DNA from: Synechococcales cyanobacterium VAR_4_metabat_354
GTDB lineage: Bacteria; Cyanobacteriota; Cyanobacteriia; Cyanobacteriales; Chamaesiphonaceae
Assembly (NCBI GenBank): GCA_031414775.1
Contig: JANOQI010000036.1
Span: forward strand, 64,001 to 128,000
Reading direction: 5' to 3'
Length of the DNA: 64,000 bases
The position numbers and the translations under genes are program-made. Below are positions 9,482 to 29,525 of this stretch, in pieces (position 1 is the first letter of the stretch; each line of letters opens with the position of its first letter). The notes beneath the pieces are model-generated. The model saw nothing but the letters and a program-made list of their open reading frames with translations, ran no database searches and was not told the DNA's origin.

Positions 9482-9500
9482 CAAACTAATAGAGGCTACT

Positions 9501-10592: not shown

Positions 10593-10672
10593 TTTTGGGG
10601 TGTGTTGTAGAGCCTTGAATAGGCTGGCGATCGATTACACTGAAAATGGGAACTAGTAATTAACCAAGAATT

Positions 10673-12386: not shown

Positions 12387-15300
12387 ATGAAATCCTTTCT
12401 GTCATCTTTACGCAAACTCGATTTTCCTGTGGAGATGCTCCGCGATCGAATAACTGCTACTAAGCAGTTTCAATTATTTACAACTTTATTATTAAGTGGT
12501 GCTATTATTGGCAGCTCGATCGGTCTAATAGCTGCTCCAGCCACTGCCGCCCCTGCCAGGAAAGATTGGTGCAGCACAATTTGGAGTGTAGATAATGCAG
12601 GCACTACCAGCAACGGAACCACTCGAATCGATCCGATTACTGGTGCAACCACCACAACCAGCCCAGCAACTGGCATCACCATGCCGCCATTTTTCCCTGG
12701 TACTGGTAGTGTCGCTGGGCTTGGTATCCATGCCGAATCTGGTACCTTATATGCCTTCGATCGCACCGGAACTACTGGCACACTCTATAAATATAAGCTT
12801 GGCACCGATACCACCTGGCAACCAGTCGCTGTTTCAGGATTGGCAGGGTTGAGCGCGATTCCATCCAAGAACCTTAACAAAGTAACAGTAGATGGTAATA
12901 CGCTCTATATTGCCGAATCGGCAGGGTTGGATGTTTACTCGATCCCATTAAATTCGAGTGGTGTTGTGATTGGAAACGCTACACTAACAGCATATACTTT
13001 CAGTGGCGATCCAATCGGCACACCGCCTCATACAACCGCTTCATTTCTTCACAACCTTGGCGGTACTGACACCACACCCACCGATCCCATCGGCTCAGCA
13101 ATCATGAACGGCGGTGATATCGCCATTGATGAGTACGGCGATGTTTACAACGTCACCTACAACGTGGTTTTGACTGCCTGGAATCTAATCGGTATTACCT
13201 GGACACCAACTACAGTTACCAACAAAGCTTACTTTTACAAGCAGAGTGGTACAACCTGGGTATATCAGGGAGAAACACCTGCAACATCGGCATTCGCTGG
13301 AGCCGCATTTTATAAAGGCGAACTATACGTCAAATCTACCACTCAGCTCAGAAAAGTTCCTTTGGTACGGTCTGGCAGCGGATATACAGGCTGGAATAGT
13401 ACATTAAGTAATGTTGGTGCAGCTTCAACAGGCTACTCCAGCGCAGATTTAGCTGCTTGCGGCACTCCCAATATCACAATGGCCAAGACTCAGCAGATTT
13501 ATGCTGATGCCGCGCTGACGACATTGGTAGCAGACCAAACCAAAGTCAAAACCGGGCAGTATATTAAATATACGATTACTGCTCAAAACACAGGTACTTC
13601 TTGGGCGAGGAGTACTACTGTCACAGATAGTTTACCAACTGGAACTACTTACGTGGCTAACTCTGCCAGTTTAAATGGCACAAGTTTAGGCTTCACAACA
13701 TATCCTACCAGTGGTTTTGTCATCAATGCCCCAGGAAGTGTTGCGGGTACTGTTCCCTACTCAACCGGAGTAGCCGGATCGGACACAGCCACCATGAGCT
13801 TCGCGGTGCAAGTAACAGCTACCAATGGGGCTGTCCAAAACCAAGCAACGGTTGCTTATGTCGATAACTCTGGTCTACCATCTGAACCGAGCGTTTGCAC
13901 GTCACCATTCCTAAACTGTTCTGTTACACCATCGGTAACAGCGACAGCGGTAGATTTTGGAGATGCCCCAGATGGGAGCGCAGGAACAGCAACTGGTAAC
14001 TACCGAACCACCGAATCTGACAATGGCGCAAGTCATGTGATTACCGCTGGCATAAAACTAGGTACCACTGCTCCAGATGCCGATAATGGTTTACAGCAAA
14101 ATGCGGCTGCTAATACTGATGGAGCTGATGAAGATGCTTTTACCAGCCTACCGAACGTGCCGACTACGGGTACTTACAGCTTGACCAATGTACCCGTCAC
14201 CAACACTACTGGTAGTGCTGCGACTCTTCATGCCTGGGTAGATTTCAATAATAATGGTAGTTTTGAAGCAGGTGAGTATGCTAGTGCTACTGTTGCCAAT
14301 AATGCTACAACTGCAAATCTGAGCTGGACAGTACCAGCCGGAACAGTAGCAGGTTCGACCTATGCCCGTTTCCGATTAACGACCCAAGCCTTAACAGACA
14401 ACAGCACGACAACGACAGCAGATGAGCGATCTTTTGGGGCTGCTAGTAATGGAGAAGTGGAAGATTATCAGGTATCGATCGTTGCCCCACTCATTACTCC
14501 TTTCAAAGATCGAATCAATAGCTGTGGCCTGATCACTTTTGATAGTAATAGCGAAGGCTTCAGGGCTGCAACCATTACTTTTAGTGGTACTAACTACAAT
14601 GCGTTCACTATCCCACCCCAATCCGCTCCATATCCCACTTCATTACCACGATTTAACTGGCAGTCTAGCGGAAATCCTGGGGGTAGCATCTTCACTAACG
14701 ATCTGGATGGTCAATGGACTATCTTTACTACTCCCGATCTTGGTACTGATACCAACTTCTCCTTTCTCAACAGCAAATCTTTGACGTTTGACTACAAAAA
14801 TGATACTGGTATTGGTGGTGCCTACGACTTCTGGGTGGCATTAGTTGGCAAGAACGGTAACAAAGTTTTCTACTCCTTCAAAACTCAACTCACTGGTGCT
14901 TCCACCACAGCATTCAGTAAGGTTGTTGTCCCGATGGATGCCAACAAATGGTTTACTACATTCCAAACGCCCACTTCGGCGGCTCCCACTTCGACTGTTT
15001 TTGCTGGCATTCTCAGCAATCTCGATCGGATTGATATCGGTGCAGAAGGGAGGGATGGGCCTGACTTAACTGAAATAGATAACATGGGGATGGCTTGCGA
15101 TCGTGGTGATGCTCCCAATACCTATAGTACGCTCGCTGCTGCAAATGGTCCATCCCATCAAATTATCTCAGCACTCAAGCTAGGAGCTAAAATCGATGCC
15201 GAAAATGATGGTCAACCCAATGCAACTGCAACTGGTGATAACCAAGACTTATCTGCAAGTAACCAGATTGGAGTTGTCAATGATGAAGATGGTATTACCG

Positions 15301-16229
15301 CCTTTCCAGCACTGACAGTAGGTGGGACTAGTTATTCTATTCCTGCTGCGAATATTACGGCTGTCAATACAACTGGTGGTGCGGCAACACTTCATGCCTG
15401 GATTGACTTTAATAAAAATGGTACCTTTGAGGCTACTGAGTATACCTCTACCACAATTAATACTAGTGGTGCTGCTACAGGGCCTTTAAGTTGGACTACG
15501 GGGTTCACCGTTGGCAGTTCTGGCTCAACATTTGCTCGCTTCCGTTTGACCACGGATACTAGCATCACCGCCAGCACTCCAGGGAGTTCAGCTACTAATG
15601 GTGAAGTGGAAGATTATCGGGTGTCGATCCTGAGCAAGGCCAATGTCCTTCTGGTAAAACGGATTACGGCTATTAATGGTATCAGGACTGGCTTAACTAG
15701 CTTTGTAGATGATGTGACGGCGACTCCTCAGGCTAGTAATGATAATAATTGTAATTGGCTAGGAGCTACTGGTAGTGCTGGCGCTTGTACAAATACTTAT
15801 ACGGTAGGAGCGACTAGTGCACCGAAAGTTAAACCTGATGATGAAATCGAGTACACAATTTATTATCTCAATGCTGGCGGCAACAAAGCTAAACAGGCAC
15901 GAGTTTGTGACCAGTTAGATGCAAACCTGACCTTCCAAGATGACACCCCAACAACAGCACCATTAGATATTCAACTTGTTCCAGGTAGTGGTTCGATTCA
16001 ATCTCTCACTAATGCCCCTAGTGATGATAAGGGAGAATTAACTACTGCTGCTCTCGCTGGAGCTAGTTGCAATTTAGCCGCTAATACTGGCACTAACTTA
16101 TCTAATAATGTTGTGGTAGTTGATGTTGCTTCCCCCACCGATCCAGCTAATCCACTAATGGGTTCTACAGGAGCCGGCACACCCACAACTTCCTACGGCT
16201 ACGTTCGCTTTAAAGCCACAGTAAAATAA
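12387..16229 (+). CDS. Large secreted surface protein 1: propeller-like N-domain, DUF11, two GEVED domains, laminin-B-like domain, shared C-terminal DUF11-like domain
   Basis: Signal peptide; DFGDAP...GEVEDY twice; KYTITAQNTG..VTDSLP..VQNQATV; C-terminal LLVKRITAING...YGYVRFKATVK; ATG 12387 preferred over GTG 12276. Confidence 0.85.
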   Translation: MKSFLSSLRKLDFPVEMLRDRITATKQFQLFTTLLLSGAIIGSSIGLIAAPATAAPARKDWCSTIWSVDNAGTTSNGTTRIDPITGATTTTSPATGITMPPFFPGTGSVAGLGIHAESGTLYAFDRTGTTGTLYKYKLGTDTTWQPVAVSGLAGLSAIPSKNLNKVTVDGNTLYIAESAGLDVYSIPLNSSGVVIGNATLTAYTFSGDPIGTPPHTTASFLHNLGGTDTTPTDPIGSAIMNGGDIAIDEYGDVYNVTYNVVLTAWNLIGITWTPTTVTNKAYFYKQSGTTWVYQGETPATSAFAGAAFYKGELYVKSTTQLRKVPLVRSGSGYTGWNSTLSNVGAASTGYSSADLAACGTPNITMAKTQQIYADAALTTLVADQTKVKTGQYIKYTITAQNTGTSWARSTTVTDSLPTGTTYVANSASLNGTSLGFTTYPTSGFVINAPGSVAGTVPYSTGVAGSDTATMSFAVQVTATNGAVQNQATVAYVDNSGLPSEPSVCTSPFLNCSVTPSVTATAVDFGDAPDGSAGTATGNYRTTESDNGASHVITAGIKLGTTAPDADNGLQQNAAANTDGADEDAFTSLPNVPTTGTYSLTNVPVTNTTGSAATLHAWVDFNNNGSFEAGEYASATVANNATTANLSWTVPAGTVAGSTYARFRLTTQALTDNSTTTTADERSFGAASNGEVEDYQVSIVAPLITPFKDRINSCGLITFDSNSEGFRAATITFSGTNYNAFTIPPQSAPYPTSLPRFNWQSSGNPGGSIFTNDLDGQWTIFTTPDLGTDTNFSFLNSKSLTFDYKNDTGIGGAYDFWVALVGKNGNKVFYSFKTQLTGASTTAFSKVVVPMDANKWFTTFQTPTSAAPTSTVFAGILSNLDRIDIGAEGRDGPDLTEIDNMGMACDRGDAPNTYSTLAAANGPSHQIISALKLGAKIDAENDGQPNATATGDNQDLSASNQIGVVNDEDGITAFPALTVGGTSYSIPAANITAVNTTGGAATLHAWIDFNKNGTFEATEYTSTTINTSGAATGPLSWTTGFTVGSSGSTFARFRLTTDTSITASTPGSSATNGEVEDYRVSILSKANVLLVKRITAINGIRTGLTSFVDDVTATPQASNDNNCNWLGATGSAGACTNTYTVGATSAPKVKPDDEIEYTIYYLNAGGNKAKQARVCDQLDANLTFQDDTPTTAPLDIQLVPGSGSIQSLTNAPSDDKGELTTAALAGASCNLAANTGTNLSNNVVVVDVASPTDPANPLMGSTGAGTPTTSYGYVRFKATVK

Positions 16230-16357
16230 TCGGTTTTGACTTAAAATATAAATACGACTCCAAATTAAAACTAGAGCCGTATTTTAAAACCAAATTATTA
16301 ACAATAGTCGTAACACATGTCATTCGCGCCACATTTACAGCACGCCAAAACTTTTGA

Positions 16358-16453
16358 GACGATCTAAACTTCGACCTATCAATTAACGAGCGCAAAACCC
16401 GCCGATTGAATCGTCGAGTTACTCGACTGGAACGTCAAGATTTCGATGATTAA
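16358..16453 (+). pseudogene. 3' remnant of a paralog of the 16477-16782 coiled-coil gene
   Basis: Translates DDLNFDLSINERKTRRLNRRVTRLERQDFDD* versus DDLNYELSDTARQTRLLKRRVVRLERKDKED*; in-frame TGA immediately upstream. Confidence 0.75.
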
Positions 16454-16476
16454 TCGAAATAGAATGCGGCAGATAT

Positions 16477-16782
16477 TCAATCTTCTTTGTCTTTGCGCTC
16501 TAGCCGAACAACTCGTCGTTTTAACAGCCGAGTCTGCCGTGCAGTATCGGACAGCTCATAATTGAGATCATCATTGTACGATATTAGAGATTGAAATCCT
16601 TCGCGAATAATAAGCTGCTGACTACCTTCAACACTGTCGATTCGGTGACGGAGAGCAATTACATCTTCTCTCAGCGCATCGATGTTTTGACTCATGGCGC
16701 CCATGTTTTGCTGCATGGTGCCAACAGCTTGAATAAGTTGAGCAAGCTGACCTTCAAGGCGATCGAAACGTTCTTCTGACAT
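16477..16782 (-). CDS. Small coiled-coil hypothetical protein
   Basis: 101-aa ORF, ERFDRLE and heptad pattern. Confidence 0.75.
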   Translation of the reverse strand: MSEERFDRLEGQLAQLIQAVGTMQQNMGAMSQNIDALREDVIALRHRIDSVEGSQQLIIREGFQSLISYNDDLNYELSDTARQTRLLKRRVVRLERKDKED

Positions 16783-16970
16783 AATAAGTAGGTGAATAGA
16801 TTATTTTACTTTGACAGATAACCTGCTAGCTCCAACTAGTGGGCTATCTCTATTTTATCTCGAAGTTAACACTTTTGATGTCATACGAGATCGTCAGCTT
16901 TTAGCTAAAATAGTACCAACCCATCACCTTAAGCGGCCATGGTTCAAACACCGATTAAGTCGATCGTGCC

Positions 16971-17077
16971 TATCCTGAATTATCGGGCTGGAGATACCGT
17001 TGAGTTGCTATCGATCAATCTTAGTTTCTCGATCGAAGATGTTTACCAAGAAATTATTTTTGAATCAACTAAGAAAA
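16971..17077 (+). pseudogene. 3' fragment of Uma2 gene
   Basis: About 12 mismatches in 107 bp versus 9974-10080 (ILNYRAGDTVELLSINLSFSIEDVYQEIIFES). Confidence 0.85.
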
Positions 17078-17137
17078 TGGATGTGTCCGATTTCAGGCCA
17101 AAGTGAAATAAAACTTGCTTTTTATACTCAGAACAAC

Positions 17138-17166
17138 AAGCTCCCCTTTACGCGGGAGCTTTTTTA
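17138..17166 (+). terminator. Intrinsic terminator
   Basis: AAGCTCCC...GGGAGCTT plus T tract. Confidence 0.75.
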
Positions 17167-17305
17167 TGATCGGGACAGCTTGGATGTTCAGTACATTTCG
17201 CTGCTTTGGTAATTCTCTAAGTACTTGTACCATCTACAAGTTCGGTAATTTTACGATAAATCTCTGGTGAGAAATGGGAAACATAAGAGGGTCTAGCATT
17301 TGGAT

Positions 17306-17341
17306 CTGTGCTTTTATTGCCATGGAAGTAGAGCCTTAAAT
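17306..17341 (+). promoter_or_regulatory. Conserved upstream element (second copy)
   Basis: 31/36 identity to 12219-12254. Confidence 0.6.
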
Positions 17342-17452
17342 TAGCTAGCAATAGAAGAATGATGTCTTCCAATACTTTGGGTGAAAAAACCTAATGCTGA
17401 AAAGAGTAACTCATTGGATTGCCTGTAAACACCCATAATATTCGTTCTAGTT

Positions 17453-20400
17453 ATGTCTAACATTCCTTCTTTAGCTTCCAGAAAAAAAACTCACTCCCCC
17501 AAAAGGAGCAAGCAACATTTTAATTCTTTAACTAGATCGATCGCTATTTTGGGTTTAATTGCAGTTAGCAATTCTCTGGGATTATCTCCAGTACTCGCAG
17601 CTCCCACGGCTCCTAATGTTTCGATTAATAACCAAGCTACAGGTACTTTTACCGATGGTGACGAGCCTGGTGCACCTCAAGAATCAGTTGTCTCAAACGT
17701 TGTTACTGTTACTGTTGCCGAGGTTGCCGGGATTACCATTACCGCTGACAATACCCCCGAGCCTTATCCCAATGCACTGATTAACTTTGACTTTGAGATT
17801 AAAAACATTGGTAACGATCCGACCAAGTTCTTTTTACCAACTGCTCCTTCTAGTGTGGCGGGTGGTACCGCAGGTACTTTACAGATTGTTGCTTATGTAG
17901 ATGCTAATAGTACTAAAACGCCTTTAACCACTCCGATTAATATCACGACCGCTAATGATACTGGAGCGATCGGCGATGGCACTTTAGGTGGTAATACTAT
18001 TGCTGGATCGATTCCAGCTGGTGCAGCGATTATTGTCCGGGTGCCAGTAACTGTCACAGCGGCGGTTAATGCTAATGTTAGCGTGACTCTCGGTAATACT
18101 ACTGGTTCACCGAATGCCAGTAATACGCCTTATATTGCTAACACCAATGATATTTATACAGTGGATAATGCTGATGCCGTTGCTGGAGAAGCAGCTGGTG
18201 TGCCAATTAATGGTGATGGTACAACAGGTGATGGTGATGTTACTAAACATCGTCAAGAAGCCAGTGCGATTAGTACTGTTCTGGTTCAAAATCCACCTCT
18301 TAAAATTTCTGGGACTGTTTTTGAAGATGTTAACTATGGGGGTGGTGCCGGGCGAGATTTGGTCAGTTCAGCTGGTGTTGCGAGACCGAATGTTCAAGTA
18401 GAAATTTATAACGCAAGTGGTGTTCTTAAGGGGCAAATGCTGACGGATACGAATGGTCAGTATGTATTTGATGCATCAAATGTTACAGGTGGATTAACAC
18501 AAGGCAATACCTATCAAATCCGAGTGGTTAATAGTTTTGTGACTTCTAGTAGACCTGGTGGTTGTGCTCAGGCAGCTGCCATTAATCTACCGCCAGATAC
18601 TTGTTTTCAGGTTCCTGTCCAAACTTTCCGCACGAGTGGAGATACGGATAGCAATAATATTGCGGATGCTGACCAAAATCGAGTGGGTGGTGAGGTACCA
18701 GCGAGAAAAGATGCTCCAGCAAATAGTGGTACTCAAAATTTAAGTGCTCTAAATAGTGCTGCGGGACAAGCCGTAGAGTCACTAACAACAGTAGCTCTAG
18801 GGTCTTTACCATTTACTGGGGTGGATTTTGGGTTTAACTTTGATACGATCGTCAATACTAACAATATTGGTCAAGGTTCATTGCGTCAATTCATCACCAA
18901 TAGTAACGCCCTGACAAATAGTGGATTAGATCAAGTTGTCAACCCTAACCCCGCAACAGGTACAACCGCTATCGATTCCGCACCAGGGATCGAAACATCA
19001 ATTTTTATGATTCCTAGCACCGCACTGACAGCCGGATCTGCAAATATCTCCCTGAGTAGCAAACTGACTGTCACTGACGATGATACTGCCATTGATGGAC
19101 GCACCCAAACCGCTAATATTGGTGATACAAACACAGGTACCGTCGGCGGTTCAGGTCAAGCAGTCGGGATTTCCGCCCAAGTACTGCCCAACTATCCCAA
19201 ACCAGAAGTCTCCCTCTCGATGACCAGTTCTGTGCTGGATGCGATCGAGATTCAGGGCAATGGTGACTCTGTTAGAGGCTTGAACTTCAGTACCAACATT
19301 CACAGTGGAATTATCGTGAGCGGGGGGTCAGCAGCCAAACCAACCCTGATTCAGAACAATATCATAGGGTTGAAGCCCGACGGGACAGCGGGTAGCGTCT
19401 GGCAAGGTATTACCGCAAATAATGGGATCGCTCCGACTAAATACCTGAATACACTGGATAATCTGATCTCTAATAACAGCTTTGCTGGTGCCAGTATTAG
19501 CTCTCCAGGACTGATTCAGGGCAATCACTTTTTCCGTAATGGCACGGGATCTTGTGATGATAATTTAAGCGTCGAACAGTCGAACCTCAACACCATTACG
19601 ATTAATAAAAACCTATTTGAAGAATCCGCCGCCAATGGCATTGAGGGCTATGGTATCCCTGGTGGGGTGACAATTACCGAAAATACCGTGCGTACTGCTG
19701 GACGGAATGGCACACTTTGTGATGGATCGATCGAAAATGATGGCATTCGCTTATTTGGTTCATCAAGCAAGATTACCAAGAATATTATCAACAGCAATGG
19801 TGGAGCTGGTGTTGTCATCACTGGATCTGGCGGGACAAAAAATCTCATTTCCCAAAATAGTTTCTACTTAAACGGGGGTCTGGGCATTGATATCGATGCC
19901 AAAAATCTCCCCGCCAGTCTCAATCCCACTGGTGATGGCGTAAGTCCAAACGATGGAACTAAGAATACTACGCCGAATAATGATATGGATTACCCGATTA
20001 TCACCTCTTCGGCTCTAAGTAGTGGCATACTAACTATCAAAGGATATGTCGGCAACGTAGCTACAGGCAGTCCGACCTTTGCCGGTGCCACGATCGAGTT
20101 CTTTGTGGGTGCCGCTGATACCAATGACAAAGGTAAAGTCTTTAGTACCGATCCAGTTACTGTTTCTAAACTCCATGCCGAAGGCCAAACGTATATTGGC
20201 GGTAGTACCCCTGGCAATTTGTGCATAACTGATGCTAATGGCTTATTTAACTGTTCTTTCCCCAATGCAAGTGCCATTGATGCTAAAAACATTACCGCCA
20301 CTGCTACCGATACAGCGGGCAACACCTCTGAATTTAGTGTTTCCAACATTGATCCGCGCGTTCTTTTAGTTAAACGAATTACGGCCATTAATGGCAGTAC

Positions 20401-20992
20401 TAACACTCTTAATGGAGACAATCTTGCTAACTATCTGCAAGATGATACTAACCCCTATGATGACAACACCATCGAAACTTCCTTAGCACCTTCCACGAAT
20501 TTTCCAGCTGCCGACACCACGTTTTGGCCAGAAACTACTGGCAAAACTAGTAGCGATTTCTTACTGGGTGGTATGAATGGCGGCAACATCAAACCCAAAG
20601 ATGTCATCGAGTACACCATCTACTTCCTCTCTAATGGTGATTCTACCGCCACTAATGTGCTGTTCTGCGATCGGGTACCTGCTAACGTTACCTTTATGCC
20701 TACCGCCTTTGATTCTTCTACGACTAAAGCCCCTGGTGGGGTGACCGAAAGTAGGGGTATCCTCACCCAACTCAATGGCATCACCGCATCTTATACTAAC
20801 GTAGCCGATGGCGATGCGGCTCGCTACTTCCCAGCTGGCAACGATCCTAAACTGGTTTACCCGAAAGTGAACTGCGGTGGCACCAACGACAATGGGGCGG
20901 TCGTTGTCGATTTAGGTAGCTTACCCAATGCGACAGCTGTCGGCACTCCTGGCTCCTATGGATTTGTTCGTTTCCAAGGGCGAGTAAAGTAA
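17453..20992 (+). CDS. Large secreted surface protein 2: N-terminal NQAT strand + Ig domain, SdrD-B-like domain, right-handed beta-helix, shared C-terminal DUF11-like domain
   Basis: Signal peptide; INNQATGTF; ISGTVFEDVNYGGG; GQGSLRQFITNSN; GNTSEFS; LLVKRIT...YGFVRFQGRVK. Confidence 0.85.
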   Translation: MSNIPSLASRKKTHSPKRSKQHFNSLTRSIAILGLIAVSNSLGLSPVLAAPTAPNVSINNQATGTFTDGDEPGAPQESVVSNVVTVTVAEVAGITITADNTPEPYPNALINFDFEIKNIGNDPTKFFLPTAPSSVAGGTAGTLQIVAYVDANSTKTPLTTPINITTANDTGAIGDGTLGGNTIAGSIPAGAAIIVRVPVTVTAAVNANVSVTLGNTTGSPNASNTPYIANTNDIYTVDNADAVAGEAAGVPINGDGTTGDGDVTKHRQEASAISTVLVQNPPLKISGTVFEDVNYGGGAGRDLVSSAGVARPNVQVEIYNASGVLKGQMLTDTNGQYVFDASNVTGGLTQGNTYQIRVVNSFVTSSRPGGCAQAAAINLPPDTCFQVPVQTFRTSGDTDSNNIADADQNRVGGEVPARKDAPANSGTQNLSALNSAAGQAVESLTTVALGSLPFTGVDFGFNFDTIVNTNNIGQGSLRQFITNSNALTNSGLDQVVNPNPATGTTAIDSAPGIETSIFMIPSTALTAGSANISLSSKLTVTDDDTAIDGRTQTANIGDTNTGTVGGSGQAVGISAQVLPNYPKPEVSLSMTSSVLDAIEIQGNGDSVRGLNFSTNIHSGIIVSGGSAAKPTLIQNNIIGLKPDGTAGSVWQGITANNGIAPTKYLNTLDNLISNNSFAGASISSPGLIQGNHFFRNGTGSCDDNLSVEQSNLNTITINKNLFEESAANGIEGYGIPGGVTITENTVRTAGRNGTLCDGSIENDGIRLFGSSSKITKNIINSNGGAGVVITGSGGTKNLISQNSFYLNGGLGIDIDAKNLPASLNPTGDGVSPNDGTKNTTPNNDMDYPIITSSALSSGILTIKGYVGNVATGSPTFAGATIEFFVGAADTNDKGKVFSTDPVTVSKLHAEGQTYIGGSTPGNLCITDANGLFNCSFPNASAIDAKNITATATDTAGNTSEFSVSNIDPRVLLVKRITAINGSTNTLNGDNLANYLQDDTNPYDDNTIETSLAPSTNFPAADTTFWPETTGKTSSDFLLGGMNGGNIKPKDVIEYTIYFLSNGDSTATNVLFCDRVPANVTFMPTAFDSSTTKAPGGVTESRGILTQLNGITASYTNVADGDAARYFPAGNDPKLVYPKVNCGGTNDNGAVVVDLGSLPNATAVGTPGSYGFVRFQGRVK

Positions 20993-21013
20993 CTTCTAAT
21001 TATTTTTTTATTC

Positions 21014-21047
21014 AAGGTATTAACTAGCTATAGTTAATACCTTTTTT
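21014..21047 (+). terminator. Intrinsic terminator
   Basis: 13-bp stem AAGGTATTAACTA/TAGTTAATACCTT plus T tract. Confidence 0.8.
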
Positions 21048-21164
21048 ACTTTTAGCGTAGTAAGAAATTTATGAAAAATGGGCAAAATAAAGATACTTAT
21101 ACCAAAAAAATATTAAGAAGTCTTGCGAATTAATACTTGATTTTTTGGGAATCGCTGCCAACCG

Positions 21165-23765
21165 ATGAACATCCAGACCGTTAGCCAAAAAATATGCATA
21201 TTACTTAGTATCACTATGGCCACTTGCTGCTTATGGAGTAGCCAACCGGCACAGGCGGAAGGAAGTAAAGAACTAACCAGCAGCGGTGGTAGACGAGCGT
21301 ATCTGAGCTATCTGACAGCAGGAACCTATGGGGGTGTATTAGAGCGGACAACAATTTATGTCTATGCCGACACTGGAGAAACAATTAATTTAGGTTCTAG
21401 TGCCCATGGCGTGAATAATGGAAGAATTCAATATACCAAACCAAGTGGATCGATCGGAACTTGTGATACTAGTACAAACAGTGGTCAGATAGTCGATCGT
21501 ACCCAAGAGCTAAACGGTCCATTTCCTCTAGCTGGTGGCTATACACCCTGTACGGTAAATGTTGGGGTCGGCGAAGCTGGTATCTGGACAATCGATTTTG
21601 TTAGTCCTTACCCTGATGATGTTTATGTTAACCCAGTTGCAATTAGTGCTGCCGGAAACTGGCCGCCCCAAGATTTCTATGACTGGTTTGTAACGGCTTG
21701 GGATGTTACTGTTACCCAAGGTGCTGGAAAACTGGTGCAGCCCGGACGGGCTTATACCAATTACTTGGCGGGAAATATTGGAGCCTATCTGGCTGATTCT
21801 TTGAGTAGTGTTTTTTATGTAGTGACTCGCGATGGTTATCACTACCGGGTAGATGCCAATGGTCTTGACCCGTTTCGATTTATCTTCTTTTCTGACAATC
21901 GAGGTGTTTATAACACCACGACAGGCAAACCTACGTATCGATCTTTCGATCTTAATGCTCTATCTAGTGATACTTTTCGCGATCCCAATGCAGCAGAAAC
22001 TCCTACTTCATATACGAACAAACTATTTTTTAATCCGATCGATCCTGCCCTGCCCAGTTTGGCGGCTTCGGCAGCGGGGGGCACTTGGCTAAATCCTTCT
22101 TTAGCACCGCCCCCGCCCCCAACTACGCTAAGTATCAATGGGGTGGAGGGTACACCCAATCAAATTGGCCAAGGTTTAGGGGGTTCTTTTAATTTTACCA
22201 ACCCAGATAGTATTAACAGACCATATCAAATTACTTTAGACTTGAATGCTAATAATATTTTTGGAGATGGTAATGATCGCGTGCTACAAGGCACAGCTAA
22301 TCCAGGCACTAATTCTATTTTTTGGGATGGAAAAGATGGAAGCAACATAGTCATAAAGTCCCAAACGATTACCTTTAAAGCAGTGATTGCGACGTTGGGT
22401 GGTGAAGTGCATTTTCCGCTCATTGATGCCGAAGGAAATTCTAATGGTTTGATTTTTAAACGTTTGAATGGCCCCACCAATGGATCTTTTGCGACCCCTT
22501 CTTTCAATGCCGATCGAATTTATTATAATGATTTTCAAATGAAAGGAAACGGCGGGGTGGGCGGTTCGACAGCTATTCCCCCAGTGCCTACTAATGCCAG
22601 CGCGGGTGTGAATAGTGTCGCTGGTGCCCACCGCTGGGGTGCCGATGATGCTTATGGGTTTGGGAATGCTGCCATCATTGATACCTGGGCTTATGCGCCT
22701 GAATTCTCCACCACTGTGCTCAATATTGTAGTTAAAGGTGCAGATTTACAAATTACTAAAAATTTAACTGGATCACTGCGGAAAGGACAGACTACTACTT
22801 ACACTCTTGATGTGACTAATGCCAAAAATCCGGAGGTCGGTAGTACCAATGATGTAGTAGGGGCAAAAGTTCAAGATATCTTGTTACCGATTTTCACTAA
22901 TCCTCAAGTTGTTTCCTGCCAAATAATTAGCGGTGCAGGTAATTGTGGCATCTATGGCTTCACTGGCAATACTTTCAATGCTAAGGCGGATCTGAATAGT
23001 GGTGCTAAACTACGCTTTGAAATTCAAGCTACTTTGTCTACTGCTGCCGCTGGTACGATTACCAACAGTGCTACTGTGAATAGACCCAAAGATATTGGTG
23101 ACCCTGTTGATCAAGATGGTCTGGGTGGCACTACGAATTTGAGTGAAACTGCCACGGTCAGTAATAGTATTGCTGCTACCTCTGGTAATGCTCAAGTTCT
23201 TTTGGTGAAACGCATCACAGCTATAAATGGTAATCGCACCGAAAATTCTAATGATAGTACCAAGTTAGATAGTGTTGTTCATGATTTGACTAATGCTAAT
23301 GATATTCATCCCCATTGGCCAAGTAGCAATTACCTGCTGGGGGCGATTAATGGTGGCAAAGTGAAATCTGGTGATACGATCGAATACACCATTTATTTCT
23401 TAAATAGCGGCAAGCTCGATGCTCGCGGCGTACGAATTTGCGATCTAATTACGGCTCACCAATCATTCCAAACCGCCGCCTACGGCACGAACAAAGATTT
23501 ACAAGCACAGATTGGATTAGCTCCAGTTGTAGATTTGACTGCAAACAATGATTCGATCGATCGAACTCAAGTTTATGGAGCAAATACTGCTGTCCCCGCC
23601 GCTTGTAAGCTCAAAGCCGCCAATACCAATGGTACTGTCGATATTCCGATTACTGGTCTGGCTGGTAGTGGTTTACCCAATTTAGCTGTGGTACCGGGAT
23701 CGATCGCGGCCGGCTCTCCGAGTAATTCTTACGGTTTGGTGAGGTTTACTAACCGTGTTCCCTAA
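21165..23765 (+). CDS. Large secreted surface protein 3: unique N-domain, FlgD-like Ig, DUF11, shared C-terminal domain
   Basis: AQA-EGSKEL signal; IFWDGKDG; ADLQITK..TITNSATV; LLVKRIT...YGLVRFTNRVP. Confidence 0.85.
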   Translation: MNIQTVSQKICILLSITMATCCLWSSQPAQAEGSKELTSSGGRRAYLSYLTAGTYGGVLERTTIYVYADTGETINLGSSAHGVNNGRIQYTKPSGSIGTCDTSTNSGQIVDRTQELNGPFPLAGGYTPCTVNVGVGEAGIWTIDFVSPYPDDVYVNPVAISAAGNWPPQDFYDWFVTAWDVTVTQGAGKLVQPGRAYTNYLAGNIGAYLADSLSSVFYVVTRDGYHYRVDANGLDPFRFIFFSDNRGVYNTTTGKPTYRSFDLNALSSDTFRDPNAAETPTSYTNKLFFNPIDPALPSLAASAAGGTWLNPSLAPPPPPTTLSINGVEGTPNQIGQGLGGSFNFTNPDSINRPYQITLDLNANNIFGDGNDRVLQGTANPGTNSIFWDGKDGSNIVIKSQTITFKAVIATLGGEVHFPLIDAEGNSNGLIFKRLNGPTNGSFATPSFNADRIYYNDFQMKGNGGVGGSTAIPPVPTNASAGVNSVAGAHRWGADDAYGFGNAAIIDTWAYAPEFSTTVLNIVVKGADLQITKNLTGSLRKGQTTTYTLDVTNAKNPEVGSTNDVVGAKVQDILLPIFTNPQVVSCQIISGAGNCGIYGFTGNTFNAKADLNSGAKLRFEIQATLSTAAAGTITNSATVNRPKDIGDPVDQDGLGGTTNLSETATVSNSIAATSGNAQVLLVKRITAINGNRTENSNDSTKLDSVVHDLTNANDIHPHWPSSNYLLGAINGGKVKSGDTIEYTIYFLNSGKLDARGVRICDLITAHQSFQTAAYGTNKDLQAQIGLAPVVDLTANNDSIDRTQVYGANTAVPAACKLKAANTNGTVDIPITGLAGSGLPNLAVVPGSIAAGSPSNSYGLVRFTNRVP

Positions 23766-25800
23766 TAGTCTTAAGCACACCAAGATAACTATCCACCGTT
23801 ACTGCTGCGCAGTTGCCCTAGGAATTATTGGCCATCATTTATTCCGGTTACCTCCAGTGTCAGCACAAGTAGTTCCTCCTGGTACGGCTATTACCAACCA
23901 AGCTACTGGCAGTTTTATAGATTCCGCCGATGATAGGCTCAGAGATTTGGAATCGAATGTTGTGAGTGTAACGATGGCGGAAGTCGCTGGCATTACGATC
24001 AGTGATCCGACTATTTCTGAACCTCTAGCCAGCTTAATTGGTATTAGTGCTACTCCTTTACAGGGAATTAGTGGTGTTAATCAAAATGATATTCTCTATT
24101 TCGATTTTATCATCACCAATACTGGCAATGATCCAACTCAGTTTTTTATTCCTGGTCAACCTTTTCGGGTGACCAATGGTGTATTCGATCGTACTCAATA
24201 TGACGTAGTCCAAATTATTGAAGTCAAAGATGGTATTGGGGCGATTGTGCCTTTACCAAACAGCGTGAGTAAGATTGAAATTCCAGCTACTGGTGCCAAT
24301 ACTGGTGATCTTGGTATTTTAAACATTCTTGGTGGCGCAATTCCAGCTAATGGTAGTGTAAAAGTGCGTGTTCCGATCAAGGTGACTGGGAATAGTGGTG
24401 ACCAGATCAGAGTTGCACTTGGTGATACGGGGCTTAATGATAATAGTGTAAATACAGTCAGCCAAACCTATACTGCCTCTGATACTCTTGGTGTTGATGT
24501 TCATACTAAAGATAATATGAACAATAGTGTTCCCCTCAATAGCGTGGTAGCTGGTGAAGTCGATGGTTCACCGGCTGGTGGCGAGAAAGAAGCTTCTCGT
24601 TATGGTGAAATCTTGATTGTTGCTCCGCCCCAAATTCGAGGGTTTAAGTCAGCTAAACTAGTGATCGATCGGAATAATGATACTAAGATTAATCCAGGCG
24701 AGACAGTAGTTTGGACGATCGATTATGCGAACACTGGTAATGTCGATATTCCTGGTTTTCAAATCACTGATACTTTGCCCATCGGGGTGAACAAGCCTGA
24801 TGTTGTTACAATATTAATCGCTGGCAATCAAACAATTACTCCACTAGTCAACAGTGATTATGTTGGTAATACCACAAATACTGGTACCACCGACAATTTA
24901 TTGAAAGATCCAATTATACTTAAAGCGGGTGGGTTTATCAGAATTACAATTCCCGTGATTGTTAATAATGGTGTGGTCGGCAAGCTATTCAATCAGGCGA
25001 TAGCTAAGGCTGATAATTTGGCTGACAGTGGTATTCCTACTGATAATGTTAGTCGAACTAGCGATTTGCCAGCAGACTTGCAAACAAATATAGCAATTCC
25101 AAATAGTAGTGTGGAGCAGACAATTACAGGATCGATCGATCCCACTAGTATTATAGTAATTAGCAATCCACAGGTCTTGCTGGTGAAGAGAATTACTGCT
25201 ATTAACGGCTCTGCCATTACCCGCGATGGCATCAATATAGCTAACTATGAAGATGATCCAGCTAATCCTTACGATGACAATGATCAGACTTCACTGACTA
25301 CCACTTATCCACAATTAGCCACCGATAAATGGCCACTAACCATCAGTCATACCAGCAGCGAGTTTTTGATCGGGACAATTAATGGTGGCACAATCAAACC
25401 GAATGATTCGATCGAATATACCATTTATTTCTTATCTACTGGTGATAGTCCAGCTAATAATGTATTATTGTGCGATCGAGTTCCTAGTAATGTCGCCTTT
25501 ATTCCTACCACTTTTAATAGCTATGTAGCTCAATCTACTAATAGTGTGAACGATAGCCGAGGTGTCCTCGCTCTCATTAACGGCACAACGGCATCTTATA
25601 CCAATGTTGCTGATGGTGATGCTGTGCGTTATTTCCCACCAGGAGACGATCCAACTAAAGTTTATCCCAAGATTAGCTGTGGCGGGATAAATGATAATGG
25701 GGCAGTTGTCGTTAATTTGGGTAGTGTGCCCAATGCAACGGCTCCAGCTACCCCAGTGGGTTCTTATGGATTTGTACGCTTCCAGGGTCTGGTTAAATAA
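23755..25800 (+). CDS. Secreted surface protein 4: N-terminal NQAT strand + Ig domain, DUF11, shared C-terminal domain
   Basis: PGTAITNQATGSF; N-domain paralogous to protein 2; GFKSAK..ITDTLP..LFNQA; LLVKRIT...YGFVRFQGLVK; overlaps previous gene. Confidence 0.85.
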   Translation: MFPNSLKHTKITIHRYCCAVALGIIGHHLFRLPPVSAQVVPPGTAITNQATGSFIDSADDRLRDLESNVVSVTMAEVAGITISDPTISEPLASLIGISATPLQGISGVNQNDILYFDFIITNTGNDPTQFFIPGQPFRVTNGVFDRTQYDVVQIIEVKDGIGAIVPLPNSVSKIEIPATGANTGDLGILNILGGAIPANGSVKVRVPIKVTGNSGDQIRVALGDTGLNDNSVNTVSQTYTASDTLGVDVHTKDNMNNSVPLNSVVAGEVDGSPAGGEKEASRYGEILIVAPPQIRGFKSAKLVIDRNNDTKINPGETVVWTIDYANTGNVDIPGFQITDTLPIGVNKPDVVTILIAGNQTITPLVNSDYVGNTTNTGTTDNLLKDPIILKAGGFIRITIPVIVNNGVVGKLFNQAIAKADNLADSGIPTDNVSRTSDLPADLQTNIAIPNSSVEQTITGSIDPTSIIVISNPQVLLVKRITAINGSAITRDGINIANYEDDPANPYDDNDQTSLTTTYPQLATDKWPLTISHTSSEFLIGTINGGTIKPNDSIEYTIYFLSTGDSPANNVLLCDRVPSNVAFIPTTFNSYVAQSTNSVNDSRGVLALINGTTASYTNVADGDAVRYFPPGDDPTKVYPKISCGGINDNGAVVVNLGSVPNATAPATPVGSYGFVRFQGLVK

Positions 25801-25856
25801 CCCTAGTTAGTTCCCAATGTCAATTATCTGGTGGTCAATGGGCAACATAAGGAAAA

Positions 25857-28800
25857 ATGAAGTCTATGCCTCCGGTACCTCGATATCAACAAGATCAGTC
25901 CCACCCAGTTTCTGATAATTATCAGGCGAAAGAATGGCAAATAGCTAGCCAGATCACTAAATTAGCGATCGGACTCAGTGTGTTGGGCTATTCATTACCT
26001 GCGGTTGCAGGTAATTGTACTACTGGTGGCGGCACTGCCGACCTATCGACCATACCGTATATTAGTGCCGAAGTATCTAACAGCAGTACAGTCTCTCAAA
26101 ATATTACAAACGCTCAAAACAACGCTGATATATTAGATGACAAGTGGCGTACAGCCATATTACCGCAAACTTCTACATCCTGGGCTAGCACTAACACTGG
26201 CTCAATTTCAAACAACGTACTCAATCTATTTACCATCAATGGGATCAGTGTTGACGTTGCACTAGTGAATGTGGACTCTAGCGGTAATTGTGCGGGTGCC
26301 GTAAATAGTGGTACTTCTTCTCCAGAACTCAATAATGCACTCACATTGCAGGGCGGCGCTCCCCGTCCAAGTAGCTTGCCTAGTACTTTAGCTAGTTATT
26401 GGAATGAAAATACAGGCAGCACGAGTAATCGCAATGGTGTTCTTTTCACATTCTCTCAACCCGTTTCGGCTTTTGGTGCTTGGTTTGGCGACCTAGAAAC
26501 CCGGTCTGGTGCTAACGGCACTCCAGCTATTTTGAGACTTCTCGATGCAACAGGAAATCGGATTGGTAGCGATATTTTGATCACACCAAGTGACATAAGT
26601 AACAATGGTGGCAGCTTTGTCGCTCTCGATCAAAGTACTTGTAGCAACATAGCAAACGGTTGTGGTAATAACTCTACTCGTTGGGTCGGGTTTGTTGATA
26701 GTACCGCCAGGGTCAAACAAGCATTGGTAATTGTTGGCGATCAAACCACCTCTGCATCTACTGGTGGTAATGGAGAACACCTCAGCTTTATTGGGGCCAA
26801 TCTTGTATCGGCAAACATTGCTGGCACAGTGTTTGAAGATGTAAACTACGGTGGTGGTGCCGGTCGGCCTTTAAATACTACCGCAACTGCTCGTCGCCCA
26901 GGTGCCAGAGTAGAACTTTATGATGGATCTGGGGTATTTAAAGCATTTACAACTACAGACAGTAATGGTATTTACAAATTTGGCTACACTAATGTCACAG
27001 GTGGAATAGTTCCAGGCAACTATACAGTCCGTGTTGTTAACAACACCGTTACTTCTTCCCGTACCGGTTCAGCAAGCACCCTTCTCCCCGTACAGACTTT
27101 CCGCACTAACGGATTGACAACCGACAACATTGGTACAGCAGACCCCAATCGGGTGGGCGGCGAAACGCCAAAACTTGTCGATGCTGGTAATGGCTCGGCA
27201 ACAGTATCTTCTTTAACAACAACGACAACAACAGCCCAGAGTATTACACCAATAACAGTTGGAACAGCTGGCGCGGCTGGCATTGATTTTGGGTTCAACT
27301 TTGATACGATCGTTAATACTAATGATGCTGGCCAAGGTTCTTTGCGCCAGTTTATTACTAATAGCAATGCTCTCAAAGGGGAAGGGAGTCTTATCCAGGT
27401 TGGCCAACCGGCGGGTTATGAAACTAGCATTTTTATGATTCCTAATAGTGTTTCCAACCCCGGTCAAAACACCGGCTACACTAATCAACTAACTGGTGGT
27501 ATCGCAGTCATCAATCTGTCATCAGGTCTGTCCATTACTGATCCTAAAACTAGACTCGATGGATCAACTCAAACCACTAATATCAAAGCTACTCCTGGCG
27601 GTGCAGAAACTAACCCTGGCCAAATTGGAACCGGTGGGACAGTAGGAACAAGCACCAGCCTAGCAAATTCTCTGGCCAAATTCGACCGTCCTGAGATCGA
27701 AATCAAGGGTAAATATACTTTGACAGCTACAGGTAGTTATAACGAAATCAAAAACATCGCGTTTAATGCTAGCAACATTTCGGTTTCTGGTTCTAATTCG
27801 TTAGTGCAAGACAACTTGGTAGGTATGAGCGCTAATGGCAGTGTCGATGCTATTACGGCGGGAGTTCCTAGCTATGGAATAACCGCAGGAGCCGCTAGTA
27901 ATATTAATATCAAGCACAACTATGTGCGGGTCAATAATTCTGGCATTCGACGTGATAACAATGGCTCCAACCTGATCGTTGAGTACAACGAAGTGGATGT
28001 ACCCAGTAGTGGACATGCGGCACCATATGACGGCATCTTGCTGATAAACACTGGATCTAACGACACTATTCGTTATAATTTGGTCAAAAATATGGGAGGT
28101 GCTGGCGCCGAAATAGGTTTTGGTAGTGGAACGTTTACGAATACCCTAATTGATAATAATACTTTTAAGCATAATGGCTACATTGGCACAAATCCTTCTC
28201 GGGAAACAATGGGAGTTGTTGTTTATTCAGCTTTCAATTCTCAAATCTCCTTGAGCAACAATGTGATTACTGAAAGTAGTGGTTCTGGTGTTGTCGTATT
28301 AGGATCTACCGGTTTGAGTTTGACCAAGAATAGCATTTTTCAGAATGGTGCTATTGGTAATGGAGCTGGATTGTCGATCGATCTCGACCCCATTAATCGT
28401 GGTCCTAATACCTATGATACTGCTAATGGTGTTACACCCAATACTGGCACAGTATCTGCTAGCTTACCCAATGGCGGCATGAACTACCCCATTTTCACCA
28501 AGGTACAACGAGTTGGCAATACCCTAAAATTAGAAGGGTATATCGGTAACACCCCAGCTGGGAACTCGGCTTTTACTGGTGCCACGATCGAGATTTATAA
28601 AGCAGACAATGATAGCAACCAAAACGGCCAAGTAATTGCCGGAGACAATTTAAACAAACCCCATGGTGAAGGTCGTTACTGGATTGGCAACCTAACAGCG
28701 GGGACTAATGGCTTATTTAACTTCAGCCTGCCCATTCCGGCTAGTTTGACAGATGGTCTAACTACCACCACCTTAGGTGCTACTGATGAAATTACAGCGA

Positions 28801-29525
28801 TCGCAACTAGTAGCGCCACTGCTTCGATCGCGCCCCGCAGTACTTCGGAGTTTAGTGCTAATACACCAATTACATTAGGTAATCCCAACTTATTATTAGT
28901 TAAACGGATTACCAAAATCAATAATTCTCAGTTGATTGGTAGCCAGTATGACTTATCTAAATATATTAATGACCCAAATGATTTCTATGATGACAATGTT
29001 TTAACATCACCAATGCCAGTGCAGGTTCCCACCCTCCGACCGGACACGAATAAATGGCCAAATACACCCAATTCCACTAGTAGCACATTCTTGATTGGCG
29101 GTATTAATGGGGGCAGCGTTAAGCCCCAGGATGAGATTGAATATACCATCTACTTTCTCTCCACTGGCGATAGCACAGCCACTAACGTCTTATTCTGCGA
29201 TCGCGTTCCCAGTAATGTCACTTTTGTGCCGACAGCTTTTAATACTTATACCCTTAAAGCCACAGGCGGCATCAACGACAGTCGTGGTATTGTCGCTCTC
29301 CTGAATGGCAATACCGAATCTTACACGAATGTTGCTGATGGAGATGCTGCTCGCTACTTTCCAGCAGGTAGCAATCCCCAAGACGTTTACCCTAAAGTGA
29401 ATTGTAATGGAACCAATGACAATGGTGCCGTTGTAGTTAATTTAGGCAGTTTACCCCCGGCTACGACTCCCGGCAATCCCATTGATTCTTACGGATTTGT
29501 GCGTTTCCGGGGTCAGGTTAAGTAA
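25857..29525 (+). CDS. Large secreted surface protein 5: unique N-domain, SdrD-B-like, beta-helix, shared C-terminal domain
   Basis: IAGTVFEDVNYGGG, GQGSLRQFITNSN, TSEFS, LLVKRIT...YGFVRFRGQVK. Confidence 0.85.
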   Translation: MKSMPPVPRYQQDQSHPVSDNYQAKEWQIASQITKLAIGLSVLGYSLPAVAGNCTTGGGTADLSTIPYISAEVSNSSTVSQNITNAQNNADILDDKWRTAILPQTSTSWASTNTGSISNNVLNLFTINGISVDVALVNVDSSGNCAGAVNSGTSSPELNNALTLQGGAPRPSSLPSTLASYWNENTGSTSNRNGVLFTFSQPVSAFGAWFGDLETRSGANGTPAILRLLDATGNRIGSDILITPSDISNNGGSFVALDQSTCSNIANGCGNNSTRWVGFVDSTARVKQALVIVGDQTTSASTGGNGEHLSFIGANLVSANIAGTVFEDVNYGGGAGRPLNTTATARRPGARVELYDGSGVFKAFTTTDSNGIYKFGYTNVTGGIVPGNYTVRVVNNTVTSSRTGSASTLLPVQTFRTNGLTTDNIGTADPNRVGGETPKLVDAGNGSATVSSLTTTTTTAQSITPITVGTAGAAGIDFGFNFDTIVNTNDAGQGSLRQFITNSNALKGEGSLIQVGQPAGYETSIFMIPNSVSNPGQNTGYTNQLTGGIAVINLSSGLSITDPKTRLDGSTQTTNIKATPGGAETNPGQIGTGGTVGTSTSLANSLAKFDRPEIEIKGKYTLTATGSYNEIKNIAFNASNISVSGSNSLVQDNLVGMSANGSVDAITAGVPSYGITAGAASNINIKHNYVRVNNSGIRRDNNGSNLIVEYNEVDVPSSGHAAPYDGILLINTGSNDTIRYNLVKNMGGAGAEIGFGSGTFTNTLIDNNTFKHNGYIGTNPSRETMGVVVYSAFNSQISLSNNVITESSGSGVVVLGSTGLSLTKNSIFQNGAIGNGAGLSIDLDPINRGPNTYDTANGVTPNTGTVSASLPNGGMNYPIFTKVQRVGNTLKLEGYIGNTPAGNSAFTGATIEIYKADNDSNQNGQVIAGDNLNKPHGEGRYWIGNLTAGTNGLFNFSLPIPASLTDGLTTTTLGATDEITAIATSSATASIAPRSTSEFSANTPITLGNPNLLLVKRITKINNSQLIGSQYDLSKYINDPNDFYDDNVLTSPMPVQVPTLRPDTNKWPNTPNSTSSTFLIGGINGGSVKPQDEIEYTIYFLSTGDSTATNVLFCDRVPSNVTFVPTAFNTYTLKATGGINDSRGIVALLNGNTESYTNVADGDAARYFPAGSNPQDVYPKVNCNGTNDNGAVVVNLGSLPPATTPGNPIDSYGFVRFRGQVK

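Follow-up and report, generated by a model that had tools for sequence, protein, structure and literature searches.

Five consecutive genes, here called p1 to p5, lie in a 64,000-nucleotide stretch of a cyanobacterial genome (Synechococcales cyanobacterium VAR_4_metabat_354, contig JANOQI010000036.1, positions 64,001 to 128,000; hereafter, the window) and encode large secreted proteins that share one C-terminal domain (CTD). This CTD is a DUF11 domain cut just before its Asn strand, without the last two strands (the penultimate and the last), and two of the five proteins, p2 and p4, carry straight after the leader a segment, hereafter the tag, with homology to the missing part. We consider it reasonably probable that the products of the five genes assemble into a surface fiber or an array of adhesins by means of a split CnaA-type DUF11/CLIPPER domain, which would be complemented by a donor hairpin and probably sealed by an isopeptide bond. 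Sequence comparison shows that the domain is split, that the tag is homologous to the strands it lacks, and that the Lys/Asp/Asn triad is invariant, and it also yields the synteny and co-occurrence described below.

The five large open reading frames (ORFs) lie head to tail on the + strand, as seen in the ORF list and its translations, and each product has a hydrophobic leader closing, as judged by eye from the sequence, on an Ala-x-Ala-like site. The genes p1 (12387..16229; alternative start, 12276), p3 (21165..23765), and p5 (25857..29525) encode putative acceptor-only proteins, which have the CTD and no tag, and p2 (17453..20992) and p4 (23755..25800) encode proteins that would be both donor and acceptor. 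The CTD makes up the last 188 to 210 residues of each protein (15636-16226 in p1, 20351-20989 in p2, 23187-23762 in p3, 25165-25797 in p4, and 28881-29522 in p5). All five copies align over their full length, with 37 invariant columns that include the opening LLVKRIT motif (Lys codons at 15657, 20372, 23208, 25186, and 28902 in p1 to p5, respectively), an IEYTIY motif, a Cys-Asp pair, and a YG.VRF...V strand followed by the stop. The genome holds exactly five copies of this domain, all in the window. Searching 1.84 billion cluster representatives with a profile made from the five copies gave 4822 proteins at E<=0.001, of which 741 had E<=1e-30; in the subset of these proteins that was downloaded, the domain ended no more than 5 residues from the C terminus in 240 of 247 full-length domain matches, and the remaining 7 matches were inside giant tandem-DUF11 proteins. 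In species-representative genomes, CTD relatives were found in 352 coding stretches, of which the best 73, chosen by likeness to the p1 CTD, were examined alongside the window, giving 74 related loci. These 73 loci span many cyanobacterial lineages (Chamaesiphon, Nostoc, Rivularia, Calothrix, Acaryochloris, Pleurocapsa, Leptolyngbya, Pseudanabaena, and others), and in every one of them (73/73) the reading frame ends a few residues after the ..RF...V strand. The passengers ahead of the CTD are highly varied and include GEVED, LTD, SdrD_B, beta-helix, and VWA regions. Among the CTD proteins of relatives, the Lys is present in 240/240 and the Asp in 239/240, which goes well beyond a chance pattern.

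Complete DUF11 domains are found inside three of the same proteins. The internal domains of p1, p3, and p4 have Lys, Asp, and Asn in one chain, with the motifs MAKT, TDSLP, and VQNQATV in p1, ITKN, QDIL, and ITNSATV in p3, and GFKS, TDTLP, and LFNQAIA in p4. The Pfam model DUF11 (PF01345) exceeded its cut-off in two of these internal domains, those of p1 (E 1.4e-12) and p3 (E 6.9e-10), and all 123 residues of the p4 internal domain could be superposed on the CLIPPER crystal structure 9IFR (chain 18..140, Z 10.2, root mean square deviation [rmsd] 2.5). In CnaA-like domains, according to the CLIPPER survey, the isopeptide bond joins the first and penultimate strands, which are on opposing sheets, and the isopeptide Asn is residue 318 in 2X9Z and Asn806 of domain 708-828 in 9IFR (PMC12617251). 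The passages of that survey that deal with DUF11 handle it as intramolecular only (PMC12617251).

We next measured the CTDs against complete domains. We built an intact-DUF11 profile by motif-anchored cutting of 180 repeats from 20 giant DUF11 proteins, which has 125 positions and consensus residues Lys7, Asp41, and Asn97; it replaced an earlier seed hidden Markov model (HMM) made from the three internal domains of the window, which gave only 2 near-full matches of 124. On the new profile 78/78 CTDs begin at positions 0-19, and 73/78 end before position 80. The AlphaFold model of the p4 CTD (predicted local distance difference test [pLDDT], 86.4; predicted template modeling score, 0.86) matches 9IFR over chain residues 20..109 only (88 aligned, rmsd 1.9, and a middling Z of 5.9). 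On RrgB (2x9z) the CTD covers 187..307 and the p4 internal domain 188..446; on BcpA (3kpt) the corresponding ranges are 266..372 and 266..463. The isopeptide Asn of both 2X9Z and 9IFR falls outside the CTD-matched part, in the case of 9IFR by way of an inferred offset (Asn806 would be at about chain residue 118 if chain 20 is residue 708). The CTD is modelled with confidence, yet it is not a complete domain, because the Asn lies beyond the part that it covers in both structures. At the sequence level, hhalign matched the CTD to the three internal domains of the window in the core strand region only (E 5.4e-5, 41 columns), and TIGR01451 (cut-off, 24 bits) scored 35.5, 27.1, 36.9, and 32.4 bits in the CTDs of p2, p3, p4, and p5, respectively, and 67.3 over two stretches in p1. 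A search of PDB sequences with the CTD profile gave 0 matches at E<=1. Foldseek with the CTD model was weak (best E 4.7e-4, template modeling score ~0.3), and the structural search with the full-length p4 model was dominated by the internal domain.

The tag occupies 17600-17758 in p2 (Asn codon 17630) and 23866-24018 in p4 (Asn codon 23896), and the two proteins have in common I-x-N-Q-A-T-G-[ST]-F ... S-N-V-V-x-V-T-x-A-E-V-A-G-I-T-I. An HMM of the tag found it in 129/240 CTD proteins, always within the first 150 residues, leaving 111/240 tagless. The Asn of NQATG is present in 129/129 tags, at a median precursor position of 50, and the second Asn (ESN) is replaced in some of them (N in 101, D in 24, E in 3, and G in 1; n = 129). 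Aligned to the intact-DUF11 profile (125 positions), 33/33 tags cover positions 88-123, and their Asn coincides with Asn97; the median score, 8.3 bits, was reached by 3/990 shuffles and the lowest real score by 114/990. On these alignments the tag corresponds to the missing penultimate (Asn) strand together with the last strand, i.e., to a hairpin rather than one strand, a correspondence that follows from the CnaA-like bond joining the first and penultimate strands (PMC12617251). The tag also behaves as a module: of the 49 tag-bearing ORFs in the related loci, 5 continue after it not with the usual AEVAGITI domain but with an SdrD_B-like start (L018, L059, and L078) or another sequence (L035 and L042). 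It is therefore unlikely that the tag is an integral strand of the N-terminal domain next to it, since these 5 tags precede different sequence.

Some ORFs of the related loci have a tag and no CTD; we rejected them as a separate protein class, as they are either frameshift pieces (L059 and L078) or short degenerate ORFs (L042, L044, L050, and L072). The pieces in L059 (10696-12466) and L078 (9580-11437 and 11698-13795) are front halves of frameshifted tag-plus-CTD genes in chromosomes of long-read metagenome-assembled genomes, and the frameshifts reflect either indel errors of sequencing or genuine pseudogenes. The short ORFs in L042 (10768-11097) and L050 (10736-11143), located immediately upstream of CTD genes, have a degenerate tag with Ser in place of the invariant Asn (IESQAVGSF); these may be decayed donors.

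Complex prediction was performed with the p4 CTD and the p4 tag, each with its own alignment (78 and 33 rows, respectively). The interface score ipSAE (interaction prediction score from aligned errors) was 0.84, 0.85, and 0.84 in three runs versus 0.00-0.01 in three controls; the mark set for this score is attained by 116/157 solved complexes and 2/215 mismatched pairs. At least 91% of contacts agreed among the tag-CTD runs, and the partner pLDDT was at least 72. In the complex model, tag residues 13-17 run antiparallel to CTD residues 104-100, the strand with Cys103-Asp104, and tag residues 30-35 lie between CTD residues 6-10 (the Lys8 strand) and 71-75. By strand register, tag Asn11 is on the Asp104 face, two residues along, and the Lys strand neighbors the last strand of the tag. 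The predicted docking thus appears to reproduce the CnaA arrangement, at the level of a model.

The whole-genome search for the tag gave a third copy (E 3.1e-11) outside the window, on contig C57 of the same genome; the window itself is part of contig C36 of this genome, which is 3.56 Mb in size and 99.96% complete. The C57 copy opens q822, the first gene of a minus-strand operon (locus L083, 1877-10363) that continues with q185, q552, and OM1206. The q822 protein has 822 residues and consists of a tag, an N-terminal domain like that of p2 and p4, a DUF7925 domain, and a CTD-like end; DUF7925 is listed in the survey table of Pfam families with predicted intramolecular isopeptide-bond domains (PMC12617251). 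Its C-terminal end has the conserved Lys and the IEY strand, ITE instead of CD, and ..F.F.R.V.N before the stop. The resemblance of this end to the CTD is weak (hhalign E 3.4e-4 over 21 columns; profile match E 0.0027), and all q822 homologues carry the CTD-like ..F.F.R.V.N strand, on which 6 of 7 terminate. The next gene downstream, in the same orientation, is q185, which encodes a small secreted protein with a single DUF11-like domain, putatively acceptor-only, that stops on the Y.V.VR strand in 9/9 homologues and has Asn/Thr-Gln at the expected place of the Asp. The next protein, q552, has an N-terminal tag followed by DUF11 and SdrD_B-like regions; the x-N-Q-A-T-Y-T-Y tag at its mature N terminus is conserved in 12/12 homologues, and a C-terminal acceptor is not evident. 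Last comes OM1206, with 1206 residues, invasin-like Ig domains, and a long beta-rich region for which Pfam gave no recognition and no usher match. The nearest ESM-Atlas clusters of OM1206 have automatically assigned names, among them TonB-dependent receptor and outer membrane protein, which is a lead only; a dedicated outer membrane component very probably exists.

Gene order links the C57 operon to the CTD genes. An OM1206 homologue lies directly upstream of CTD genes on the same strand in 32 of the 74 loci, where the recurring order is q822, q185, q552, OM1206, a tagless CTD gene, and then tag-plus-CTD genes; the first CTD gene after OM1206 is tagless in 32/32 of these loci. We also counted co-occurrence at E<=1e-5 in 201 genomes spread evenly over the phylum, which include related genomes that are not independent, so that the figures are counts and not statistics. 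The CTD was found in 25 genomes, OM1206 in 31, and the tag in 20. All 25 CTD genomes carry an OM1206 homologue, usually a few kilobases away on the same contig; 19/25 CTD genomes have the tag, and 19/20 tag genomes have the CTD. In one large family, 0/73 genomes had the CTD, the tag, or OM1206 at this threshold. In most of these genomes the single tag match falls in a q822-sized ORF ~5 kb upstream of OM1206. A minimal system would therefore seem to comprise q822, q185, q552, and OM1206 together with one tagless adhesin, and the five-gene array of the window seems to be an expansion separated from this core. In family f28, made up of distant members of the phylum (G016, G052, G076, G094, and G130), there are weak OM1206 homologues with 27-31% identity, and one of these genomes, G130, has a tag match (E 7.3e-9) and no CTD at the threshold used, which hints at a diverged version of the system beyond photosynthetic lineages.

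In the assembly that we propose, the acceptor would be the C-terminal domain with its first-strand Lys and catalytic Asp, minus the last two strands, and the donor would be those two strands, presented as a hairpin right after the signal peptide cleavage site with the invariant Asn in the first of them, as in p2, p4, q822, and q552. After Sec export, the donor hairpin would enter the acceptor of another subunit, with its second strand parallel to the Lys strand and its first strand antiparallel to the Asp strand, completing the beta-sandwich. A Lys-Asn isopeptide bond would then most likely form spontaneously, aided by the Asp, as in intact CLIPPER domains but between chains. Having no tag, p1, p3, and p5 could only be chain ends, that is, alternative distal adhesins with adhesin-like passengers, comparable to FimH of type 1 pili. 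Extension of the chain would fall to p2, p4, and probably q822 as the conserved shaft; q552, a donor with no evident acceptor, could end or root the chain; q185, whose acceptor domain is missing the Asp, could serve as a noncovalent periplasmic holder of donor hairpins; and OM1206 would export or root the fiber.

A sequence-only reading of the window had suggested inter-subunit strand completion before these analyses, and much of it stood. It had placed the Lys and Asn codons exactly, had recognized the complete internal DUF11 domains of p1, p3, and p4 that the motifs, Pfam (p1 and p3), and the 9IFR superposition (p4) bear out, and had described a common CTD with Lys and Asp and no Asn strand, in agreement with the alignment, the profile coverage, and the structure comparison. 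It had also held that p2 and p4 begin with the missing strand: a homologous tag is indeed found right after the leader, but it corresponds to a two-strand hairpin and not a single strand. Its remark that no sortase or usher was evident holds for the Pfam families in both window and genome, but the picture was incomplete, since the C57 operon adds a predicted outer membrane protein, two further tagged proteins, and an acceptor-only miniprotein. The two computations that it had put forward, a multimer prediction of the CTD with the tag and an HMM survey of their co-occurrence, gave the docking (ipSAE 0.84 against a best control of 0.01) and the counts reported above. For its central claim, completion of one subunit by another followed by bonding, the split, the tag homology, the docking, and the invariant triad are all favorable; the bond itself, the length and polarity of the polymer, the extender and tip roles, and the functions of q185, q552, and OM1206 are what we infer from them. 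Overall its interpretation is partly supported, with all available computational tests on sequences and models pointing in its favor.

Several observations weigh against a fiber assembled by hairpin exchange. A confident model is obtained for the CTD by itself, and modelling thus gives no indication that it needs a partner; the predictor says nothing on stability. Comparison of the tag with the three internal domains of the window by hhalign is weak, although in the right register (E 0.049, 10 columns), and a Pfam scan of the 33 tags gave no DUF11 match and an unrelated family in 1/33 (E 0.041). In the complex model the closest listed contacts of Lys8 are tag Ser30, Asn31, and Val33, not Asn11, and the proximity of Lys8 to Asn11 rests on strand register. 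A split domain may also pass complex prediction by its likeness to intact solved domains; the docking result therefore shows that likeness, in that two pieces form one domain, and not binding in the cell. The selection of loci by likeness to the p1 CTD biases the gene-order count, and 6/25 CTD-positive genomes are without a tag at E<=1e-5. Self-complementation in cis, moreover, would fit the full-length p4 model, in which the tag is confidently placed (pLDDT 78-89) and the long CTD insertion, which is in contact with the tag in the complex model, has a pLDDT of 85-95, compared with 55-77 when the CTD is modelled by itself. A low-confidence linker ahead of the CTD in the same model would be consistent with the hairpin of p2 or p4 folding into its own CTD to give a covalently clasped ring, with tagless proteins left open or served by other donors. 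Predictors, however, commonly self-complement donor-strand subunits when no partner is offered; the N-terminal domain comes directly after the tag, so that a ring would demand a fold-back of three domains; and the 111 tagless CTD proteins require a donor in trans, if any. We regard such rings as very improbable.

Strand exchange could instead be limited to one-to-one anchoring, in which the hairpins of a root protein (q822 or q552, tied to OM1206), or those of p2 and p4, capture single adhesins like a covalent coat hook, with very short chains at most. Most sampled genomes do have one tagged q822-like gene, one OM1206 gene, and one tagless CTD gene, the tagless gene stands beside OM1206 in all 32 loci with OM1206, and the matches that make the end of q822 a candidate acceptor are weak. 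We nevertheless think this rather unlikely, as p2, p4, and 129/240 CTD proteins combine donor and acceptor in the way expected of a chain extender, and q822 homologues close on a CTD-like last strand after the conserved Lys and IEY strand. It is also conceivable that the CTD serves mainly as a signal for export or sorting that OM1206 recognizes, like C-terminal beta-sandwich signals elsewhere, with no strand exchange and some other role for the tag; its strictly C-terminal position on very varied passengers, the perfect co-occurrence of CTD and OM1206 (25/25), and the confident model of the CTD alone would all suit such a signal. The NCBIfam models of sorting signals (type IX secretion system CTD, PEP-CTERM, etc.) listed none at E<=0.01 and gave only TIGR01451 in the CTDs, although a new signal could escape such models. 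A sorting signal leaves unexplained, however, why the domain is cut exactly before the Asn strand, why Lys and Asp are invariant, why the tag is homologous to the missing strands with an invariant Asn, and why tag and CTD dock so far above the controls, and we judge this explanation improbable; export signaling and strand exchange are not mutually exclusive.

The closest relative of the CTD by sequence, fold, and the logic of Lys, Asp, and penultimate-strand Asn is the CLIPPER/DUF11 family (PF01345; 9IFR) (PMC12617251). In CLIPPER a single chain supplies all three residues and is bonded to itself; in our system the Asn, together with the last two strands, is found at the N terminus of another protein or of the same one. 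The CTD further differs from CLIPPER in an insertion of ~55 residues and an invariant Cys beside the Asp. In organization, the system as predicted resembles chaperone-usher pili (type 1 Fim and P), which combine an incomplete Ig-like acceptor with an N-terminal donor extension, have tip adhesins made of a passenger and an acceptor with no donor, and are encoded in operons with a large outer membrane protein; the gene order is similar (major subunit, small periplasmic protein, outer membrane protein, minor subunits, adhesins). Unlike those pili, the present system would use a hairpin as the donor and has a CnaA-type acceptor with an isopeptide triad and large multidomain subunits, and there is no Pfam usher or PapD in the genome: searches of the 99.96%-complete assembly for sortase (PF04203), usher (PF00577), and PapD-like chaperone (PF00345) gave no match, and control genomes were matched for usher and PapD. 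Sortase pili (RrgB, BcpA, SpaA, and SpaD) are the best structural neighbors of the CTD and of the p4 internal domain and have CnaA/CnaB isopeptide domains in their shaft subunits, but their intermolecular bonds are made by sortase at LPXTG; here there is neither a sortase in the genome nor an LPXTG motif in the five proteins, which are also without a hydrophobic tail or membrane anchor and end in ..VRF...V(K/P). In SpyTag/SpyCatcher, SnoopTag, isopeptag, and DogTag, a strand with one reactive residue is split from an isopeptide domain and reacts with it in trans. Those pairs were cut in the laboratory from intact adhesin domains, whereas the cut described here is apparently natural and conserved and would serve as an assembly principle.

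Donor-strand exchange combined with an intermolecular isopeptide bond has been proposed for two other filaments. In BsaA of Clostridium perfringens, a member of the TasA family, the N-terminal segment is described as entering the sheet of the next subunit, followed by a proposed spontaneous isopeptide lock (PMC11580942). BsaA differs in its TasA fold family, its Gram-positive host, and its dependence on the SipW signal peptidase and type IV pilus genes (PMC11580942), whereas our system belongs to a diderm with its own outer membrane protein; no TasA or peptidase M73 family was among the Pfam matches of the five proteins at E<=0.01. The archaeal thread of Sulfolobus acidocaldarius is likewise described as combining donor-strand complementation with a proposed intermolecular isopeptide bond and no sortase; there, the bond runs from the side chain of an Asn to the amino group at the N terminus of subunit n+2, and the subunit has no Pfam domain (PMC9715654). 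The bond proposed here would join Lys and Asn side chains inside a reconstituted DUF11 domain. The cyanobacterial CT pilus is a different, small-pilin system (PMC12397347), and where DUF11 is mentioned in two other texts, the subject is a signal peptide and a giant hook protein with tandem DUF11 domains (PMC13297417; bioRxiv 10.1101/2025.08.19.671072). Full-text searching of the literature found no CLIPPER/CnaA domain that is split in nature and used to assemble subunits in a diderm, nor this cyanobacterial gene set. It is possible, if short of probable, that we are dealing with an undescribed class of pilus in double-membraned bacteria, which would do without sortase, usher, and PapD, would exchange the last hairpin of a CnaA-type isopeptide domain, would seal itself with a self-catalyzed Lys-Asn bond as a natural Tag/Catcher, and would have its own giant outer membrane protein, q185 as a periplasmic holder, and swappable tip adhesins.

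The remaining parts of the five proteins are as follows. An extended leader (MKSFLSSLRKL...) opens p1 and is followed by an N-terminal passenger, one complete DUF11 domain, two GEVED domains, and the CTD; the start at 12387 is favored, as homologues open with MKFFLSSLRKL. This leader (12387-12530) has a conserved extension (MKS[LF][FL]K.L.AI...) that is frequent in tagless CTD proteins, where it precedes the hydrophobic signal peptide core by ~30-60 residues and recalls the extended signal peptides of autotransporters; tag-bearing proteins are without it. In p2 the signal peptide and tag are followed by the shared N-terminal domain, an SdrD_B-like and beta-helix-like passenger, and the CTD. 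A signal peptide, an N-terminal region with no family assignment, one complete DUF11 domain, and the CTD make up p3; p4 has a signal peptide, the tag, the N-terminal domain, the complete CLIPPER-like domain (~24646-25164), and the CTD; and p5 has a signal peptide, an N-terminal region, SdrD_B-like and right-handed beta-helix regions, and the CTD. The passengers of p2 and p5 are paralogous (SdrD_B-like, then right-handed beta-helix), and one passenger would thus exist in both an extender (p2) and a tip (p5) version, because the two proteins share it but differ in the tag. The end of p3 and the GTG start of p4 share 11 nucleotides (23755-23765), which suggests translational coupling of an acceptor-only gene with a donor-plus-acceptor gene.

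Between p1 and p2 there is a 1.2-kb gap (16230-17452) of lower G+C content (0.413 in the 16-18 kb bin), where the sole ORF is an unsupported one of 101 amino acids on the minus strand with no Pfam match; the gap may be a promoter or regulatory region that divides the array into two transcription units. Rfam gave no match anywhere in the window. Among the sequencing runs listed for this DNA, none was of RNA, and the 4 DNA runs belonged to a single study. Directly upstream of the array (7821-11260) are four genes of the Uma2 family (putative restriction endonuclease-like), in which 8894-9481 pairs with 10673-11260 and 7821-8453(-) with 9501-10091 as paralogues, suggesting local duplication. The genes flanking the array are otherwise ordinary cyanobacterial housekeeping genes, and a scan of 30 neighbor genes revealed no secretion or assembly gene.

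If the proposed assembly is correct, it would be a new route to covalent surface fibers in bacteria with an outer membrane; to our knowledge, covalent pili have so far been a Gram-positive, sortase-dependent specialty. It would also offer protein engineering natural Tag/Catcher pairs already proven by evolution, as many orthogonal paralogues with hairpins in place of single-strand tags. For the organisms themselves, it would mean that cyanobacteria, including mat and biofilm formers, have a modular adhesin system with swappable tips.

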